Source of the DNA: a virus
Lineage: Duplodnaviria > Heunggongvirae > Uroviricota > Caudoviricetes
Reading direction: 5' to 3' (one strand)
IMG/VR virus record: IMGVR_UViG_2706794662_000016
Length of the DNA stretch: 6,389 nucleotides
The translations under genes and the position numbers were made by a program. Shown piece after piece: positions 1 through 6,389 of the stretch. The stretch's first letter is position 1. Every line of letters starts with the position of its first letter. The notes under the pieces were generated by a model. The model saw only the letters and a list, made by a program, of their open reading frames with translations. It did no database searches and was not told the origin of the DNA.

Positions 1-50
1 GGCAGCGGGCTTGTAATGGGTTAAGTGATAACAGATGTCTGGAAATATAG
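1..50 (+). CDS. insD: IS2 transposase OrfB (InsD), C-terminal fragment truncated by window edge
   Basis: In-frame codons from position 3 to TAG at 48-50; peptide matches recalled IS2 OrfB C-terminus. Confidence 0.75.
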
Positions 51-61
51 GGGCAAATCCA
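1..61 (+). mobile_element. IS2: IS2 right terminus (IRR); body of the element lies left of the window
   Basis: Reverse complement of 1-61 reads TGGATTTGCCCCTATATTTCCAGACATCTGTTATCACTTAACC..., which I recognise as the IS2 right inverted repeat. Codons at 3-50 translate to [15 protein letters not shown]-stop, matching my recollection of the InsD/OrfB C-terminus. Recalled, not searched. Confidence 0.8.
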
Positions 62-116
62 CAACCAGTTGAGCGGATTCGCGTTTAAACTCTGCGCTAA
101 AATTTCTTTTTTTCAT
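62..116 (-). pseudogene. IS911-like orfA (transposase A) N-terminal fragment, disrupted by IS2 insertion
   Basis: Only 18 codons present before the IS2 junction at 61/62. Confidence 0.7.
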
Positions 117-188
117 TGGAGCACCTGTGTTGTTCTGAGGTGAGCATATCACCTCTGTTCAGGTGGCCAAATTCAGTGTGCCACTTCA
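62..188 (-). mobile_element. IS3-family (IS911-like) left end: terminal inverted repeat plus first 18 codons of orfA, interrupted by IS2
   Basis: Minus strand from 188 reads TGAAGTGGCACACTGAATTTGGCCACC..., an IS3-family terminus (TGAAGTGG). Complement of 114-116 is ATG, followed by [18 protein letters not shown], which matches my recollection of IS911 OrfA; the frame is cut at 61/62 by the IS2 end. Confidence 0.7.
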
Positions 189-642
189 CTTAGCAGCACC
201 TAAGCAACAATTGACTAACAGATTCGGTAGAGTCTATCTCATAGGTCAACTTCATAAACTCAGAGCTAAGTTACCTTGAAAGATTCTACCAAGAACTACA
301 CAGGTGTTATTTAGTCTGACTGTGAAGGGATATTTAACGGGAGAAGAGATACGATATAACCCGAAGGGAGAGTATCATCTTAACAATTATCTTAAGAATA
401 AAAACTGAAAAACTCTTAACAGATAACCACCTAGAAAGAAGGGAACGATAAGACCAGAGGTAGTGACCTGTTAAACAGGCTGTTTCAAAGTCTCTTAAAT
501 AAGTAAGGTCATGTGAACAATCTTACCATTTTGTCAATGCTTTTGTCTTTGACCTAAATCAATAAAATGTATCGTTTGATATGCTTTTAAACAAAATAGC
601 TAAAAAATCTTTTTTTAGAGGGGCGCTTCGCTTGGGGTCACT

Positions 643-1170: not shown

Positions 1171-1503
1171 TTAACGGGGGTCTGTGTGGTCGTTATCCTT
1201 AAGGTCAAGCGTCCATGTACGACCGAACAGTTTAAAGACAACAAGCACTCTGACGAGGACGTAGCGAAGTAGCAGGCCTGCAATCAGCCCAATACCTCCA
1301 CCAGTCCATACATCAGGTGACCCCAGCTCAGGAGGGAGATTTACCATTAGTTTTCCTTGTAAGACGCTCTCAATCGCATTCTGACACAAAAAGTACCTGA
1401 CCTTATGAGTTGACCTGAAGAGGTCGTTTAACTCGTTACAGGGCGATTGAAGAGGTCTGTGTGCAATGCAAAATATGCGACCAAATACATAGCCACGCCT
1501 CAT
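1171..1503 (-). CDS. Hypothetical small protein (110 aa) with hydrophobic C-terminal segment; alternative 58-aa product from internal ATG (complement 1345-1347)
   Basis: A minus-strand promoter lies immediately upstream, with SD GGGGAGAG 6 nt before the ATG at complement(1501-1503). The C-terminus GGGIGLIAGLLLRYVLVRVLVVF is hydrophobic. The internal Met53 has its own SD (AAGGA). The N-terminal third is encoded across repeat element A, so its true extent is uncertain. Confidence 0.5.
   Translation of the reverse strand: MRRGYVFGRIFCIAHRPLQSPCNELNDLFRSTHKVRYFLCQNAIESVLQGKLMVNLPPELGSPDVWTGGGIGLIAGLLLRYVLVRVLVVFKLFGRTWTLDLKDNDHTDPR
1362..1459 (+). repeat. Bipartite repeat element, copy A: conserved 5' arm (1362-1392) and 3' arm (1426-1459) around a variable core; arms carry inverted repeat CTCAATCGC / GCGATTGA(A)GAG
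   Basis: Near-identical to copy B in both arms (5' arm about 29 of 31 nt, 3' arm 31 of 34 nt by eye); the cores differ in sequence and length. Confidence 0.65.
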
Positions 1504-1525: not shown

Positions 1526-1555
1526 ATTATACCACAGATGTTACGAAAATGTTAA
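1526..1555 (-). promoter_or_regulatory. Sigma70-type promoter on minus strand (TTAACA - 18 nt - TGgTATAAT) driving the 1171-1503 gene
   Basis: The -10 is complement of 1526-1531 (TATAAT) with an extended TG; the -35 is complement of 1550-1555 (TTAACA); SD and ATG follow within about 25 nt. Confidence 0.6.
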
Positions 1556-1561
1556 AAATAC

Positions 1562-1590
1562 TTGACATTAGTCTTTGAAAATGCTAATAT
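1562..1590 (+). promoter_or_regulatory. Sigma70-type promoter P1 (TTGACA - 17 nt - TGcTAATAT) driving the 1642-2953 operon
   Basis: Consensus -35 TTGACA at 1562-1567, 17-nt spacer, extended -10 at 1582-1590. Its -35 sits 6 bp from the -35 of the divergent minus-strand promoter. Confidence 0.65.
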
Positions 1591-1641
1591 TGTATATATA
1601 GGTTAACAGAATAATAACATCTTATGAGAGTCAGAACATGA

Positions 1642-2199
1642 ATGCAGTATTCAGAATTTAGAGCGATGCTTCAGGCATCAAGAGAACGCAACAAGCACAA
1701 CTCCTACGCTTACACAAACAACCCCACCAGCTACGAAGTCCCAACCTTTAGCAAATCCGAACGTAAGAACATTGAAGCGGTCATTCGTAGCATTACGCCA
1801 CGAGACAGATTTATGCCAGTACGCAAAACAACAAAGAATACTATTAAAAATTATCTGGCTAACTTTGACAGTTACGAGCAGTTACCAAGCAAGCTTGATG
1901 ATGTTTTTATTGGGTTCTGTAGAAGTGAAGGCCACCCGAAATACAACAAAAAACTATTTTATCTGCTAAAGAATCTTGACGAAATTAACGCATCCACCGT
2001 GACAAATCATCTTCAGCGACAGGCAACCAGACTTAGTTACGAATTACCAAGCGATAAATATTGCGCTTTGCTTGCTGTGATGTGCGCGAAATTAATTGGC
2101 ATTGTTGAACATCATATTGCCGTTGGGAATATTGAGCCAATGGAAAACGAGCAACCAGATTTCGAGTTTGACCCCTATTTAGTTACAGAGGATTTTTAA
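1642..2199 (+). CDS. Hypothetical protein (185 aa), first gene of operon
   Basis: Long ORF downstream of P1; the stop TAA at 2197-2199 abuts the next ATG. No family recognised; the SD is weak. Confidence 0.7.
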   Translation: MQYSEFRAMLQASRERNKHNSYAYTNNPTSYEVPTFSKSERKNIEAVIRSITPRDRFMPVRKTTKNTIKNYLANFDSYEQLPSKLDDVFIGFCRSEGHPKYNKKLFYLLKNLDEINASTVTNHLQRQATRLSYELPSDKYCALLAVMCAKLIGIVEHHIAVGNIEPMENEQPDFEFDPYLVTEDF

Positions 2200-2478
2200 A
2201 TGAATAAACACACATTAACCAGAGTTACAAAGACAGCCTTTGATGAACTGAACCGAATCAAAAACATTACAGGTCTGCCACACTCAGCAGTGATGAAGCT
2301 TGCAATTAACCGTGATATTAACGAACAGGATTTGCTTAATAGTCGCTTAGAGGCTGCAAGACACCATATCAGGATTAAGCAAGATGACCTTGATAGTCTG
2401 AAATCCTTAAATGCTTTTGGACTGGATTTAGCAAGGTTACTAAGTATCAAAATTCACAAACTGTCTCAGGAGGTCTGA
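2200..2478 (+). CDS. Hypothetical small protein (92 aa); possible ribbon-helix-helix-like N-terminus
   Basis: SD GAGGA 8 nt upstream; start abuts the upstream stop (TAAATG). The N-terminal HTLTRVTKTAFDELNRIKNITGLPHSAVMKLAI fits a strand-helix-helix pattern by eye only. Confidence 0.7.
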   Translation: MNKHTLTRVTKTAFDELNRIKNITGLPHSAVMKLAINRDINEQDLLNSRLEAARHHIRIKQDDLDSLKSLNAFGLDLARLLSIKIHKLSQEV

Positions 2479-2480
2479 TT

Positions 2481-2753
2481 ATGAAGCAATGGCGAGATGA
2501 TATTAAACGGTTCTTTGCAACTTACTTCATGATTAATTATGAGACAGGAATGCTTGAATGGATTGATGGTGGAGAGGTTAAGACAAGAGATGATGCTTAC
2601 GGTAATCCAATGATTCGTTATGGCACTCGTGATTATTATCTGAAGTATGTCATCTGGTTTTTGCATCATGAAGTTCAGGCAACTAAAAAGATTATCTTCA
2701 GGGATGGTAATAAAAGAAATTGCCACCCAAACAATTTACTCCTGGAGATTTAA
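2481..2753 (+). CDS. Hypothetical small protein (90 aa) with degenerate HNH_3-like signature (IIFRDGNKRNCHPNNLL); catalytic His apparently replaced by Arg
   Basis: Strong SD AGGAGG at 2468-2473, 7 nt before the ATG. The motif resembles the HNH_3 pattern HxDGNKxNN...NL from memory, with R in place of the first His. Confidence 0.7.
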   Translation: MKQWRDDIKRFFATYFMINYETGMLEWIDGGEVKTRDDAYGNPMIRYGTRDYYLKYVIWFLHHEVQATKKIIFRDGNKRNCHPNNLLLEI

Positions 2754-2953
2754 TGTTATGTATTAAATTCGAATATTTGACAGATAAAATGATTAAGCAT
2801 GTATCAGACCTGCTCATCAAAGAAGGTGGTTTCGGTGATGCTTGCAATCCAAAAGATATCTTCATTCATGCCACCAGCCCAAACGCAACACTAAAGACAG
2901 CAGTTACAGCGGAATGGTTTGAACGAAATAAAGCGGAATTAGGTTATTGGTAG
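2753..2953 (+). CDS. Hypothetical small protein (66 aa from ATG 2753; the track ORF begins at an upstream TTG at 2720)
   Basis: ATG overlaps the upstream stop (TAATG at 2751-2755); GGAG lies 6 nt upstream. Confidence 0.55.
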   Translation: MLCIKFEYLTDKMIKHVSDLLIKEGGFGDACNPKDIFIHATSPNATLKTAVTAEWFERNKAELGYW

Positions 2954-2990
2954 TCCGAGACTTTAAGAGAAATTAGAAAAACAGCTTATC

Positions 2991-3111
2991 AGACGCTCTC
3001 AATCGCATTCTAACGCAAAAAACTATCTTATTTTAGGGTGGGTAATACCACTGTACAGGCTACCCCTGAAAAAGACTGTTTAGCTCGTTACAGAGCGATT
3101 GAGGAGGTCTG
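2991..3111 (+). repeat. Bipartite repeat element, copy B: 5' arm 2991-3021, 3' arm 3078-3111, internal inverted repeat CTCAATCGC (2998-3006) / GCGATTGAG (3095-3103)
   Basis: Intergenic, with no ORF across it. Arms match copy A; the core contains palindrome CTGTACAG and a CCCCTGAAAAAG segment. Confidence 0.65.
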
Positions 3112-3131
3112 GTAAAAAGGAGATTTTAAAA

Positions 3132-3455
3132 ATGAACGAATATGAATTACAGATTTTCATTGATAGCGACACTGCTATGATGGTGCAGGCTTTCGCTGAT
3201 TCCGGTGTATCAATTGACCTTGATAAATTACTAAAGCTAATGGCTGAAAACTCAGAAGAAATTGAAGACTTTATTCAGGAAATTGAAACTGGTGAACCGC
3301 GTTTTATGTTTCCTGTTACCGACTCAAACATGAAGCGTCTTATTATCGAAGAAACGAACAAATACAGCGTTAGCCCTGAAAAATATCTCAAGGCGGCTAT
3401 AGCAATTTTGTATAGCGATAATATTCTGGTGACGGATTCGAAGGTGGTGCATTAA
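3132..3455 (+). CDS. Hypothetical acidic protein (107 aa from ATG 3132); possible RHH-like C-terminal region
   Basis: SD AAGGAG at 3117-3122, 9 nt before the ATG; the track ORF begins at an upstream TTG (3099) inside repeat B. C-terminal FMFPVTDSNMKRLIIEETNKYSVSPEKYLKAAIAIL fits a strand-helix-helix pattern by eye. Confidence 0.7.
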   Translation: MNEYELQIFIDSDTAMMVQAFADSGVSIDLDKLLKLMAENSEEIEDFIQEIETGEPRFMFPVTDSNMKRLIIEETNKYSVSPEKYLKAAIAILYSDNILVTDSKVVH

Positions 3456-3520
3456 TGGAATTGGTGATTATCTGTTTTGTATTGATTGGTATGATTGCAG
3501 GTGCATCTATTAAAGTATAA
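3455..3520 (+). CDS. Candidate micro-ORF, 21-aa hydrophobic peptide (MELVIICFVLIGMIAGASIKV)
   Basis: ATG overlaps the upstream stop (TAATG at 3453-3457); SD-like AAGGTGG at 3441-3447, 7 nt upstream. Not in the ORF track (below its length cutoff). Confidence 0.3.
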   Translation: MELVIICFVLIGMIAGASIKV

Positions 3521-3544
3521 ATGTTACCAATCTGTTAAAAGCTG

Positions 3545-3573
3545 TTGACAAACAACCTTGAGCATGACATAAT
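3545..3573 (+). promoter_or_regulatory. Sigma70-type promoter P2 (TTGACA - 17 nt - TGaCATAAT)
   Basis: Consensus -35 at 3545-3550, 17-nt spacer, extended -10 at 3565-3573. Followed by TGTATATATGG, which also follows P1. Confidence 0.6.
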
Positions 3574-3742
3574 TGTATATATGGGGGAGAGCAATTCTCT
3601 CTTATTTTTTCTTTCAATAATCCGATGGATGGATATTCTGAGTTGGAAAGGTGCAATGCTTTTCGTCCTAGCCTTTCAGGTTGGTCTGAGAGGCTATCTC
3701 AAAAAGTCTTTGTTCATTCATTATTGAATCCTTTACAGCTTT

Positions 3743-3770
3743 GCCCTAATCATGAGTTAGGGCTTTCTTT
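3743..3770 (+). terminator. Candidate intrinsic terminator (GCCCTAA - 7-nt loop - TTAGGGC, then TTTCTTT)
   Basis: Perfect 7-bp stem at 3743-3749 and 3757-3763 followed by a U-rich tract. Confidence 0.5.
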
Positions 3771-3840: not shown

Positions 3841-3875
3841 AAGCCCTTCACAGATTATGTTTAGGGCTTTTCTTA
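3841..3875 (+). terminator. Second, weaker hairpin paralogous to the 3743-3770 hairpin (AAGCCCT ... AGGGCTT then TTCTT)
   Basis: 7-bp stem with a 15-nt loop; shares TTAGGGCTTT(T)CTT with the first hairpin. Confidence 0.3.
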
Positions 3876-3946
3876 ATAGAGCATCTTTAATAAATCGTTA
3901 AGTCATCTTCTAAGTGTATTGGCGTTGAAGGTGCTCTATTAAGAAA
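3869..3946. repeat. 15-bp perfect inverted repeat TTTCTTAATAGAGCA (3869-3883) / TGCTCTATTAAGAAA (3932-3946) with 48-nt spacer, in the leader of the 3971 gene
   Basis: Extended base by base until the first mismatch. A second interleaved inverted repeat, CTAAGTGT (3910-3917) / ACACTTAG (3952-3959), abuts the SD GAGG at 3959-3962. Confidence 0.65.
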
Positions 3947-5069: not shown

Positions 5070-6347
5070 ATGGCACAATTTAAAGTTGATGATTTTCTGA
5101 TTGAGTTAAGTTTTAACTCTCAGAAAGTTTTAAAAGGCTTGGAAAAAGCCGAGAAACAAACGATGCAGGTAGCATCACGAATTGAGAAGCGATTGAATAA
5201 GTCGTTTAGAGTTAATCCTACGCCTTTAAATGATTCTCTCAAACTAATGGAAAGAAATGTCGATAAAACTGTTTCCAAGATTGAGCAGCGTCTTAAAAAC
5301 ACTAGAGCGTTTAAGATTAAAACTGAAATTGAGGATACTTTAAAGCCACTTAGACAACCAAGACAGCCACGAATTAGCGGAAGCAGAGCAATCACAGCAG
5401 CTTACTCAGCGAATATGAGCAAGCTTCGTGACTTTAATCCTATGCTTGAGAAGTATTTTAAAAGCCAGTATTACAGCTTAAGCAGTAAATCCAAGACACT
5501 TGGAAACGAAACTTTTAATCGTGAGTTAGCAAAGTTAAATCAGTCTCTTCGTGAAACACTTTCTAAGTTTAACAAGACCACCAGCAAAAATAATCACAGT
5601 GAAAATGCTTCAAATAGTCTGGATGTATTAGCTACGAGTGCAATCAAAGCAGGTACAGCCATTTATAGTTTTCAGACAGCCTTAGAAGCTTACAGGCGGA
5701 TTATGGAGGTTGGTCTGAAAAAAGAAGCATCACAACGAGCGGCACAATTCGTTTTAGGTGATGAAGGTGCTAAACGAGCTACAGAATTTGTTAAGAATCT
5801 TGCTGATAGTAGTGGTGTAGACCAGATTGAAACATTAAGCAGTTTTGCTAAGTTTTCCGCTGGTGCTGGTGATATGAATGCAGACCAGAAAGAATCCTTA
5901 TTTTCTAATGTGATTGGTACATCCAGATTAATGGGGCTAAGCACCGATGAAATTAACGGGATTTTAAAAGCTTTCGAGCAGATGGCATCTAAAGGAAAGA
6001 TTCAGGCTGAAGAGCTACGCGGTCAATTAGGTGACAGAATGGCAGGTGCTTTTCAGTTATTTGCCAGAAGTCTTGGGATGACTACGGAAGAATTAGACAA
6101 GGCCATGAAAGACGGTAAGATTCTTTCTAAAGATGTTCTTCCTAAAGTATCCGCTGAAATGGGAAGGATGATTGATAAAGCTGGTGGATGGGAAAAGATT
6201 ATTAACTCTACTCAGACGCAGTTAGGCCGCTTAAGTAATTCATGGAATAATAATCTGGCCTTAATGTTCGATGGTTCACAGGAAGGTTTAACAGACTTTA
6301 CAAGGTCACTGACTAATTTACTTAATTCACTAAATAGCTGCGCTTAA
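5070..6347 (+). CDS. Tape-measure-domain protein (425 aa), lambda gpH-like N-terminal region; possibly a truncated remnant
   Basis: SD AAAGAGGTG 10 nt upstream. The motif EELRGQLGDRMAGAFQLFARSLGMTTEELDKAMKDGKILSKDVLP matches the conserved phage tape-measure core as I recall it, and the N-terminus MAQFKVDDFLIELSF resembles lambda gpH MAEPVGDLVVDLSL. Domain assignment is from memory. Confidence 0.8.
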   Translation: MAQFKVDDFLIELSFNSQKVLKGLEKAEKQTMQVASRIEKRLNKSFRVNPTPLNDSLKLMERNVDKTVSKIEQRLKNTRAFKIKTEIEDTLKPLRQPRQPRISGSRAITAAYSANMSKLRDFNPMLEKYFKSQYYSLSSKSKTLGNETFNRELAKLNQSLRETLSKFNKTTSKNNHSENASNSLDVLATSAIKAGTAIYSFQTALEAYRRIMEVGLKKEASQRAAQFVLGDEGAKRATEFVKNLADSSGVDQIETLSSFAKFSAGAGDMNADQKESLFSNVIGTSRLMGLSTDEINGILKAFEQMASKGKIQAEELRGQLGDRMAGAFQLFARSLGMTTEELDKAMKDGKILSKDVLPKVSAEMGRMIDKAGGWEKIINSTQTQLGRLSNSWNNNLALMFDGSQEGLTDFTRSLTNLLNSLNSCA

Positions 6348-6389
6348 TACCGCTACACTTTTGCCAGCCCATGTTTGCCTCCGGGGAAT

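Follow-up and report, generated by a model that had tools for sequence, protein, structure and literature searches.

An operon with two candidate regulators and an optional HNH-type cassette in a tail-gene-bearing chromosomal island of Enterobacteriaceae

The 6,389-nt stretch of DNA analysed here, hereafter the window (IMG/VR virus record IMGVR_UViG_2706794662_000016), holds at positions 1642–2953 four co-oriented open reading frames (ORFs) of 185, 92, 90 and 66 amino acids (aa), named ORF1 to ORF4. These genes had been described in an initial annotation as a tightly coupled operon of unrecognised small proteins, and this observation is confirmed both by their coordinates and by the purifying selection acting on them. 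The ratio of nonsynonymous to synonymous substitution rates (dN/dS) against orthologues is 0.14–0.18 for ORF1, 0.10–0.17 for ORF2, 0.04–0.11 for ORF3 (on just 7–9 differences) and 0–0.31 for ORF4 and, because these values are low, all four are genuine genes under purifying selection and not chance ORFs. A hypothetical protein of Shigella sonnei, present on more than 1000 contigs, has the same sequence as ORF1 (100% identity). The window itself is a copy, eroded by insertion sequences (IS) and located at the yciI–tonB site of S. sonnei, of an island of about 10–11 kb found in Enterobacteriaceae. Eight of these islands were compared: that of the window and those of the loci L001, L002, L003, L008, L009, L010 and L011.

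The four genes form a tightly coupled, promoter-proximal unit. The stop codon of ORF1 and the start codon of ORF2 abut (TAAATG, 2197–2202), and those of ORF3 and ORF4 overlap by 1 nt (TAATG, 2751–2755), as originally reported, whereas the gap between ORF2 and ORF3 is of 2 nt (TGA-tt-ATG) instead of the 3 nt initially given. ORF4 is taken here from its ATG; in the ORF listing it starts at an upstream TTG and reaches 77 aa. Ribosome-binding sites of the AGGAGG or GGAG type can be read off the sequence 5′ of ORF2, ORF3, and ORF4. The single promoter proposed ahead of the operon is also borne out. This promoter (P1) is sigma-70-like, with a −35 hexamer TTGACA at 1562–1567, a 17-bp spacer, a TG element and a −10 hexamer TAATAT that ends at 1590, 50 nt 5′ of ORF1. 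Although the coding regions of the eight islands are only 57–95% identical, no variation is seen in the −35 hexamer, in the TG or in most of the 90 bp around them. No terminator-like site is predicted on the plus strand from 1642 to 3580, including the ORF4–ORF5 interval, and the operon probably extends further, to take in a long hairpin, ORF5 and a mini-ORF of 21 aa that overlaps the ORF5 stop codon (Table 1). A hydrophobic peptide of 21–25 aa is encoded at the position of this mini-ORF in all eight islands, in two to three very different allelic forms; the mini-ORF has no RefSeq annotation.

Table 1. Position and description of the operon and of the features around it in the window.
Feature	Position	Strand	Description
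58-aa protein	1171–1347	−	Single-transmembrane (TM) protein; divergent from the operon; promoter TTAACA-18-TATAAT at 1555..1526, back to back with P1
P1 control region	1536–1622	+	Rightward promoter with bracketing 20-nt inverted repeat; from promoter scan and island comparison
ORF1	1642–2199	+	185 aa; core island protein; helical, with a putative helix-turn-helix (HTH)-like domain at residues ~60–165 after a basic stretch; uncharacterised family
ORF2	2200–2478	+	92 aa; core island protein; predicted tandem beta-alpha-alpha repeat, ribbon-helix-helix (RHH)-like
ORF3	2481–2753	+	90 aa; optional HNH_3-type cassette; Phe73 at the catalytic His position
ORF4	2753–2953	+	66 aa from ATG at 2753; accessory small protein; family undetectable
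Long imperfect hairpin	2985–3115	+	Between ORF4 and ORF5; folding free energy −51.6 kcal/mol, z −5.6
ORF5	3132–3455	+	107 aa; conserved island protein; probably co-transcribed with ORF1–4
Mini-ORF (MELVIICFVLIGMIAGASIKV)	3455–3520	+	21 aa, hydrophobic; overlaps the ORF5 stop codon via TAATG
P2	3522–3605	+	P1 paralogue; 5′ of the ORF6–ORF7–tape-measure genes; terminator hairpin directly 3′
Tape-measure gene	5070–6347	+	425 codons left, against 691 aa when intact; IS-truncated; PF20155 (2.5e-21); phrog_4036 (1.7e-72)

The comparison of the islands does not sustain the view of these genes as a single four-gene module. ORF1 and ORF2 are present in 8/8 islands and constitute the conserved core, ORF3 is an optional cassette, and ORF4 is an accessory gene. 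The slot that follows ORF2 is variable: it contains ORF3 and ORF4 in the window, L001 and L008; ORF3 together with a divergent ORF4 (a 40% variant) in L003; ORF4 and an HNH paralogue that retains the catalytic His in L009; ORF4 alone in L010; and a 128-aa protein with a C-terminal HTH in L002 and L011. The ORF3 allele is thus found in half of the islands (window, L001, L003, and L008), and orthologues of ORF4 are found in L001, L008, L009, and L010. The operon is hence less uniform, and probably also longer, than first depicted.

None of the four proteins falls into a characterised family, in agreement with the initial annotation. Searches of Pfam, PHROGs, NCBIfam, PADLOC and PDB sequences returned a sub-threshold HNH_3 match for ORF3 and weak DndE matches for ORF2 and nothing else, and the profile searches against Pfam and PDB placed none of the proteins in a housekeeping or phage structural family. 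In the PDB sequence and profile searches with ORF1–4, the matches were at chance level (antibodies, xylanase, ClpP), and ORF4 has no match in Pfam, PHROGs, PDB sequences, or NCBIfam. Likewise, neither ORF1–7 nor the 58-aa, tape-measure and Dit-like proteins of the island match PADLOC-DB v2 at E ≤ 0.1. Among the regulatory, anti-defence and defence functions that had been suggested for the operon, a regulatory one is the most plausible, and evidence for either of the other two was not found.

The family of ORF1 comprises 1090 clusters at 90% identity, every one of them annotated as hypothetical. At 50% identity, these collapse into essentially one cluster plus three longer proteins that are ~30% identical to it. 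The core of its AlphaFold model is confident (pLDDT, the predicted local distance difference test score, ~85–93), and the structure searches gave no informative fold match; Foldseek against viral models retrieved uncharacterised phage proteins only. By these searches, ORF1 is a confidently folded domain without a structural relative. Within the model, a helix at residues 102–111, followed by a turn and by a polar-basic helix at residues 117–131, may be read as an HTH-like DNA-binding domain, and the distant homologues of ORF1 carry a stretch rich in Lys, Arg, and Pro ahead of the conserved core. When ORF1–4 and ORF5–7 were compared with phages by tblastn, a single weak match was obtained, between ORF1 and a hypothetical protein of an Aeromonas phage, the neighbours of which are uninformative.

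The distant homologues of ORF1, of 274–317 aa and ~30% identity, bear an extra C-terminal region and occur in Citrobacter sp. NCU1 and in Pantoea (L007, 1344–9377; L005/L006, about 9900–10800). The proposal that this extension corresponds to the N-terminus of ORF3 was dropped, as BLASTP gave no match between them. In Citrobacter sp. NCU1, the ORF1-like protein is encoded next to a tape-measure-like protein of 716 aa and a large serine recombinase that is split, and the genes follow a different order. These distant relatives suggest a wider family of elements with a different gene organisation.

ORF2, on the other hand, forms 34 clusters, all of them hypothetical. Its predicted secondary structure consists of two consecutive beta-alpha-alpha units (E4–10, H11–24, H28–35 and E54–60, H61–72, H77–91), in an AlphaFold model with a mean pLDDT of only 47.9. 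Both halves align in register as a weak internal repeat (hhalign P = 0.011). The N-terminal region of DndE gives weak matches in 15 of the 21 ORF2 homologues (best E = 0.0024, under the 25-bit cut-off), and VAPB_antitox does so in two of the 21. ORF2 does not match any of the RHH families in Pfam at threshold, and the PDB profile search yielded nothing relevant. The RHH fold that had been raised as a possibility is hence backed by weak signs in ORF2 (predicted topology, repeat, and DndE matches), while a family match at threshold is missing. Like the proteins of the Arc/MetJ/CopG type, ORF2 is small, has the predicted beta-alpha-alpha arrangement (in this case twice) with a Gly at each helix–helix turn, and is encoded behind a promoter with flanking short repeats, which is typical of autoregulatory RHH genes. 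It differs from them in that it matches no RHH Pfam family, the weak DndE N-terminal matches being all that was found, and in that its DNA binding is a prediction. The evidence fits a single-chain tandem RHH protein without proving it, and ORF2 may be such a protein. F-plasmid TraY is a single-chain tandem RHH regulator. As for the structural modelling envisaged for these proteins, it yielded a confident model without informative matches for ORF1, and one too poor to be searched for ORF2.

A role of this pair of genes in packaging, with ORF2 recognising DNA in the manner of a small terminase and ORF3 acting as an HNH terminase accessory, so that helper packaging is steered to island DNA, is very improbable. 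NCBIfam does relate ORF2 to the P27-family small terminase, in a very weak match (E = 0.027) that reaches 14.4 bits against a threshold of 45.6 and covers 41 residues. HNH genes commonly adjoin terminase genes in HK97-like phages, which counts in favour of this possibility; nevertheless, no terminase or portal gene lies nearby, and ORF3 is optional and devoid of the catalytic His.

ORF3 matches the HNH_3 profile (PF13392) with E = 7.5e-5 and 22.7 bits, below the gathering score of 24.8 bits, and the PHROG HNH families at E = 3e-4 or weaker. Its homology to HNH_3, the family of the I-HmuI-type HNH/N endonucleases, is credible because the paralogue of island L009, 40% identical to ORF3, passes the threshold with 34.3 bits. 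The HNH_3-like signature with a replaced catalytic His, which had been noticed in the initial annotation, is consequently real though sub-threshold: the paralogue reads IIHRNGN where ORF3 reads IIFRDGN, and Phe73 stands at the position of the catalytic (general-base) His. The L003 copy shares this Phe, as does the main cluster from E. coli (P0121, with 189 member sequences), whereas Asn77 and Asn85-Leu86 are kept in both ORF3 and the L009 paralogue. The match covers positions 1–38 of the 46 of the model, the end of the domain is missing, and the protein stops four residues past Leu86. No additional domain or DNA-binding module was found in its 90 aa with Pfam, PHROGs, or NCBIfam.

ORF3 is distributed as an optional cassette. 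Alignment of the junctions reveals a clean 275-bp insertion between ORF2 and ORF4 in the window, L001, L003, and L008, while in L010, from which ORF3 is absent, ORF2 and ORF4 meet directly at a TAATG. The final eight codons of ORF3 share in-frame homology with those that end ORF2, so that its C-terminal tail derives from flanking ORF2 sequence; the paralogue of L009 is inserted at the ORF4 stop codon and takes its last codons from the downstream flank. Such precise presence/absence polymorphism between homologous loci is observed here as it is for free-standing homing-endonuclease genes. Moreover, ORF3 is 94–98% identical between islands in which ORF2 (57%) or ORF4 (53%) has diverged, of the approximately 367 E. 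coli genomes with the island 67 carry it, with all copies 95–99% identical, and its protein forms 10 clusters only, several of which are ORF3–ORF4 deletion fusions or frameshifts. This pattern is the one expected for a free-standing homing-endonuclease gene that would have spread recently and would now be degenerating.

Like the free-standing HNH_3 (I-HmuI-type) homing genes of phages, this cassette matches the HNH_3 profile, with a paralogue above threshold; it is present or absent at gene junctions, with two paralogues at different insertion points; and it combines low diversity against diverged flanks with degenerate derivatives in the population. Unlike them, ORF3 lacks a NUMOD, IENR or HTH DNA-binding module, is of 90 aa only, has a Phe in place of the His, falls eight positions short of the end of the model, and carries a C-terminal tail from the flanking ORF2; its homing role is a putative one. 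I-HmuI has a length of 174 aa. The HNH part of the operon is, in sum, an ordinary object, a degenerate free-standing HNH gene, which appears to be caught between homing-endonuclease invasion and decay or domestication.

The proximity of ORF2 and ORF3 could also recall a type II toxin–antitoxin or abortive-infection pair, in which an RHH antitoxin (ORF2) and an HNH-fold toxin (ORF3) would stabilise the island or kill infected cells. An RHH-like ORF2 lies directly 5′ of a nuclease-fold ORF3 of similar size, across the 2-nt gap, and the two VapB-antitoxin matches mentioned above point in the same direction. This pairing was nonetheless rejected on the grounds of co-occurrence, given that ORF2 is present in 8/8 islands and ORF3 in 4/8: ORF2 is constant, ORF3 is usually absent, and a lone antitoxin would make no sense. 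In addition, ORF3 is without the catalytic His, ORF2 is modelled as two beta-alpha-alpha units with no toxin-binding tail, and PADLOC gave no match, all of which makes such a system scarcely probable.

[quoted passage not shown] One of their proteins, NixI, is an I-HmuI-like HNH/N nickase whose validated catalytic residue is an Asn (PMC9410903), and CapR is a PLE repressor domesticated from a homing endonuclease (PMC8096241). ORF3 could accordingly be a helper-directed effector, either a NixI-like nickase that damages the genome of the helper phage or a CapR-like, nuclease-dead and sequence-specific binder that represses helper genes, with ORF4 as its partner. Its match is to HNH_3, the I-HmuI family; Asn85, in the sequence NNL, corresponds to the catalytic Asn of NixI (PMC9410903); CapR provides a precedent for an endonuclease-derived repressor (PMC8096241); the gene is intact and has a low dN/dS in 67 genomes; and ORF3 and ORF4 are translationally coupled. 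However, ORF3 is absent from most islands (67 of about 367 genomes have it) and from whole lineages such as L010 and L002, its general-base His is replaced by Phe, it is 90 aa long with no DNA-recognition domain and 38/46 model positions, decayed variants exist, and tblastn did not find a phage homologue. An effector function of this kind is therefore regarded as unlikely.

Regarding the sites on which putative regulators might act, P1 is bracketed by a 20-nt inverted repeat with arms at 1536–1555 and 1603–1622, built of the units TGTTA(C/A) and T(T)AACA, and one TGTTA-type unit of this repeat is at the same time the −35 hexamer of the leftward promoter of the 58-aa gene. P1 (1539–1600) and P2 (3522–3583) share the architecture TGTTAC-N5-TGTTAAAA-N4-TTGACA-N17-extended -10-TTGTATATAT, which is conserved in other islands. 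A 20-base composite motif has two exact matches (P1 and P2) and none in 200 shuffles, the motif being defined from these same two sites. A terminator hairpin (3581–3605) follows P2 directly and a second terminator is predicted at 3743–3763, both of them before ORF6. Since P2 is followed by successive terminators before this gene, control through antitermination or activation is suggested. A third hairpin with a T-run, also before ORF6, was seen by eye near 3850–3880.

The window is a fragment of a widespread element. Of 5426 complete E. coli genomes, 367 contain the operon region, which is chromosomal in every case and never on a plasmid, and DNA searches of phage and plasmid collections gave no match to the region. 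The related intact copies in E. coli are 87–91% identical to the window; those of E. coli A0 34/86 (L001), D10, LSN03-016011/A, and HYM1 lie between yciI and tonB, and those of ECONIH4 and 503829 split yecE (DUF72). In A0 34/86 (NZ_CP120567), the island occupies approximately 3,017,600–3,028,300. In all these islands the order is constant. They start with a small serine recombinase of the resolvase/invertase type, in either orientation, and an ORF-less region of ~1.4–2 kb, to be followed by the minus-strand 58-aa TM gene, the back-to-back divergent promoters, ORF1, ORF2, and the variable slot. Next come the long hairpin, ORF5, the mini-ORF of 21–25 aa, and the second promoter with its terminators. 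The islands end with ORF6, ORF7, the tape-measure protein (TMP_3, 691 aa), a Dit-like baseplate protein of 256 aa (PF21821, 2.6e-17) and, on the opposite strand, the large serine recombinase that integrates the island, which in the intact E. coli islands has 505–506 aa and the domains Resolvase, Recombinase, and Zn_ribbon_recom.

Over its full length, the tape-measure protein shares 28% identity with those of Felix O1-like myoviruses. The Dit-like protein has a counterpart, ~70% identical, in 299 phage records, the majority from Felix O1-like phages of Escherichia, Salmonella, Shigella, Citrobacter, and Erwinia. In phage SUSP2, the homologue of the Dit-like gene lies directly 3′ of the tape-measure gene, as in the island (L001, 24770–27774). 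As judged from sequence comparison, the tape-measure and Dit-like genes of the island are colinear with those of Felix O1-like virulent myoviruses. The GC content of the island (39.7%) is close to that of the structural region of SUSP2 (40.5%), while its flanks have 48–50%.

This gene content recalls the PLEs. PLE11 of V. cholerae, a satellite whose recombinase is of the large serine type, has genes for a tape-measure protein, a tail chaperone and a baseplate hub of its own, giving rise to chimeric tails; these tail proteins are 20–41% identical to those of the helper phage ICP1, and no other satellites with a tape-measure protein had been reported according to the same study (PMC12987554, 2026). 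Other features of the PLEs are an ORF-less stretch that separates divergent operons and a small TM protein, LidI (PMC9410903). In the same way, the enterobacterial island is a small chromosomal element with a large serine recombinase at one end and nearly all of its genes hypothetical. Its transcription is divergent and it has an ORF-less region. It carries tape-measure and baseplate genes of its own, related to those of a virulent myovirus, as PLE11 does (PMC12987554). It has a gene of the I-HmuI HNH/N family, ORF3, where PLEs have NixI (PMC9410903), and small TM proteins, with the 58-aa protein and the 21-aa mini-ORF in place of LidI. In CapR, there is an earlier example of an endonuclease domesticated into a regulator (PMC8096241). 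Nevertheless, both types of element exhibit clear differences. The island is of about 10–11 kb, compared to about 17 kb for PLEs; RepA_N, a replication protein with a DNA Pol I domain, a capsid-remodelling gene and a tail chaperone are all unrecognised in it; its HNH-like gene is optional, tiny, and without the catalytic His; and its hosts are Enterobacteriaceae, with a putative helper that is Felix O1-like. By its gene content and features, the island would be a satellite, a status that rests on analogy because no replication, packaging or capsid genes are recognisable in it and ORF1–7 have no phage homologues.

Taken together, the preferred reading, with a probability of roughly 0.55, is that ORF1–4 are the promoter-proximal part of the early rightward operon of the island, in which ORF1 and ORF2 act as regulators, ORF3 is a relic, and the island as a whole is a PLE-type phage satellite of Felix O1-like phages. 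ORF1, with its basic arm and HTH-like helical domain, and the tandem RHH-like ORF2 would form the DNA-binding switch of the island, whose targets would be the TGTTA repeats found on either side of P1 and again at P2. As P2 heads the terminator-laden leader of the tail-gene operon, the expected outcome would be autoregulation combined with the timing of late expression. ORF3 would originate from the invasion of the junction of ORF2 and ORF4 by a free-standing homing-endonuclease gene, now either decaying or a domesticated, non-cutting DNA binder. ORF4 would be an accessory protein of the operon, whose transcript would also include ORF5 and the mini-ORF. It is the assignment of the regulators that accounts for most of the uncertainty.

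Several points weigh against this reading. None of the annotated homologues gives ORF1, ORF2, or ORF4 any function, and the homologues of ORF1 located near tail genes in the Aeromonas phage and in Citrobacter fit a non-regulatory role as well. The model of ORF2 is of low confidence (pLDDT 48) and too poor for a meaningful fold search. The P1/P2 motif was set after both sites had been viewed, so that the shuffle statistic overstates its significance, and nothing links this motif to ORF1 or ORF2 over a host or phage factor. Regarding ORF3, mosaic recombination across the island, rather than homing, could explain part of its identity pattern, and its low dN/dS, based on 7–9 substitutions, speaks weakly against simple decay. 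Finally, the satellite nature of the island has to face the lack of recognisable replication, packaging or capsid genes and, save for the weak ORF1 match, of phage homologues of ORF1–7 in the tblastn search.

A competing function for the core genes arises from the ORF-less region that adjoins the operon. ORF1 could be a replication initiator acting at an origin located in this region, with ORF2 as an RHH accessory protein of the relaxosome or partition type. The island has no other candidate initiator, and the ORF-less region is conserved, of ~1.4–2 kb, and contains short repeats and a 95-bp tandem duplication. The PLE origin is likewise found in ORF-less space adjoining repA (PMC9410903), and ORF1, one of the core genes, has a helical domain that is possibly winged-helix-like. 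Against this, ORF1 shows no similarity to RepA_N, Rep_3, DnaD, or any other initiator family, a regular iteron array was not found, and the clearest repeated motifs are on the P1 and P2 promoters instead of in the ORF-less region. A replication module is thus considered a doubtful alternative to the regulatory role preferred here.

A more ambitious form of the regulatory proposal would make the island an undescribed PLE-like family of satellites of Felix O1-type phages, distributed among E. coli, Shigella, Salmonella, and Citrobacter, with the operon as its control centre. In this scheme, ORF1 and ORF2 would be a new DNA-binding pair that times the tail-gene operon through P1, P2, and the terminator-rich leader, and ORF3 a nuclease-dead HNH protein binding helper or island DNA, like CapR or NixI. 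So complete a scheme is improbable as it stands. A literature search for a satellite or island of Felix O1 found no description of one, and a search with the RefSeq protein accessions found nothing. On the whole, the earlier interpretation of the operon is partly supported.

The interest of the operon stems from its context, which resembles an enterobacterial counterpart of the PLEs aimed at Felix O1-like phages; no description of such a counterpart was found. If the satellite reading is true, enteric bacteria carry a compact satellite-like element against Felix O1-type phages, which are used in Salmonella typing and considered for therapy, and the operon is its regulatory arm. The strategy of encoding an own tape-measure protein and baseplate hub would then extend from the Vibrio PLEs to Enterobacteriaceae, where tractable E. 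coli strains would allow it to be tested. Should the island be inert, however, what is left is a cryptic element in decay with four hypothetical genes. The copy from S. sonnei that the window represents is a decayed remnant, and the intact E. coli islands are better suited for functional work.

The decay of this copy is evident in the complete S. sonnei genomes, where the locus between yciI and tonB is riddled with IS elements and its downstream genes are broken. The tape-measure gene is cut at codon 425 in these genomes as in the window, next to an IS630-type (DDE_3) transposase, and the large serine recombinase is destroyed or missing. Both ends of the window (1–190 and 6333–6389) are IS junctions, the left one with an IS3-family orfA fragment on the minus strand (21–152), which is presumably IS911-like. 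In the complete S. sonnei genomes examined (L013–L015), ORF5 is split by IS1, while it is intact in the window.

The 58-aa single-TM protein encoded divergently from the operon is conserved (dN/dS of about 0.06–0.11) and could be a protein with a lysis-, toxin- or LidI-like function. It is annotated in some genomes only (in RefSeq, in one genome), and the ~170-nt leader of its gene includes one copy of the long hairpin repeat. A 110-aa version of this minus-strand ORF was dropped as a gene, just its last 58 codons being conserved, and so was the ORF at 643–930, whose reading frame is not kept in L001.

The hairpin repeat is a near-palindrome of 105–130 nt with two copies in the window (1356–1459 and 2985–3115), the arms of which are ~90% identical. 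The 3′ arm of the copy located between ORF4 and ORF5 stops just before the Shine–Dalgarno sequence of ORF5, and the other copy (z −2.6) ends just before that of the minus-strand 58-aa gene. Other islands also have a hairpin at the ORF4–ORF5 position, with the same or a different sequence. In the covariation test, the consensus fold of this hairpin across islands mixed two unrelated intergenic alleles.

An origin or a non-coding RNA could lie in the stretch from 760 to 1035 of the ORF-less region; an Rfam search over the whole window gave no useful match. This region contains a tandem duplication of ~95 bp (858–940 and 952–1035) and clustered CG(G/T)TTAAGA-like repeats at 772–792 and 829–849. 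Between it and the left end of the island there is a segment of variable content (L002, 12694–19137; L008, 10523–11191; L010, 8461–10205), with examples such as an FRG-domain protein with TPR and other hypothetical proteins, a methyltransferase of the Dam type, and a pair of hypothetical genes. This left segment may represent a hotspot for cargo or defence, or else be invertible.

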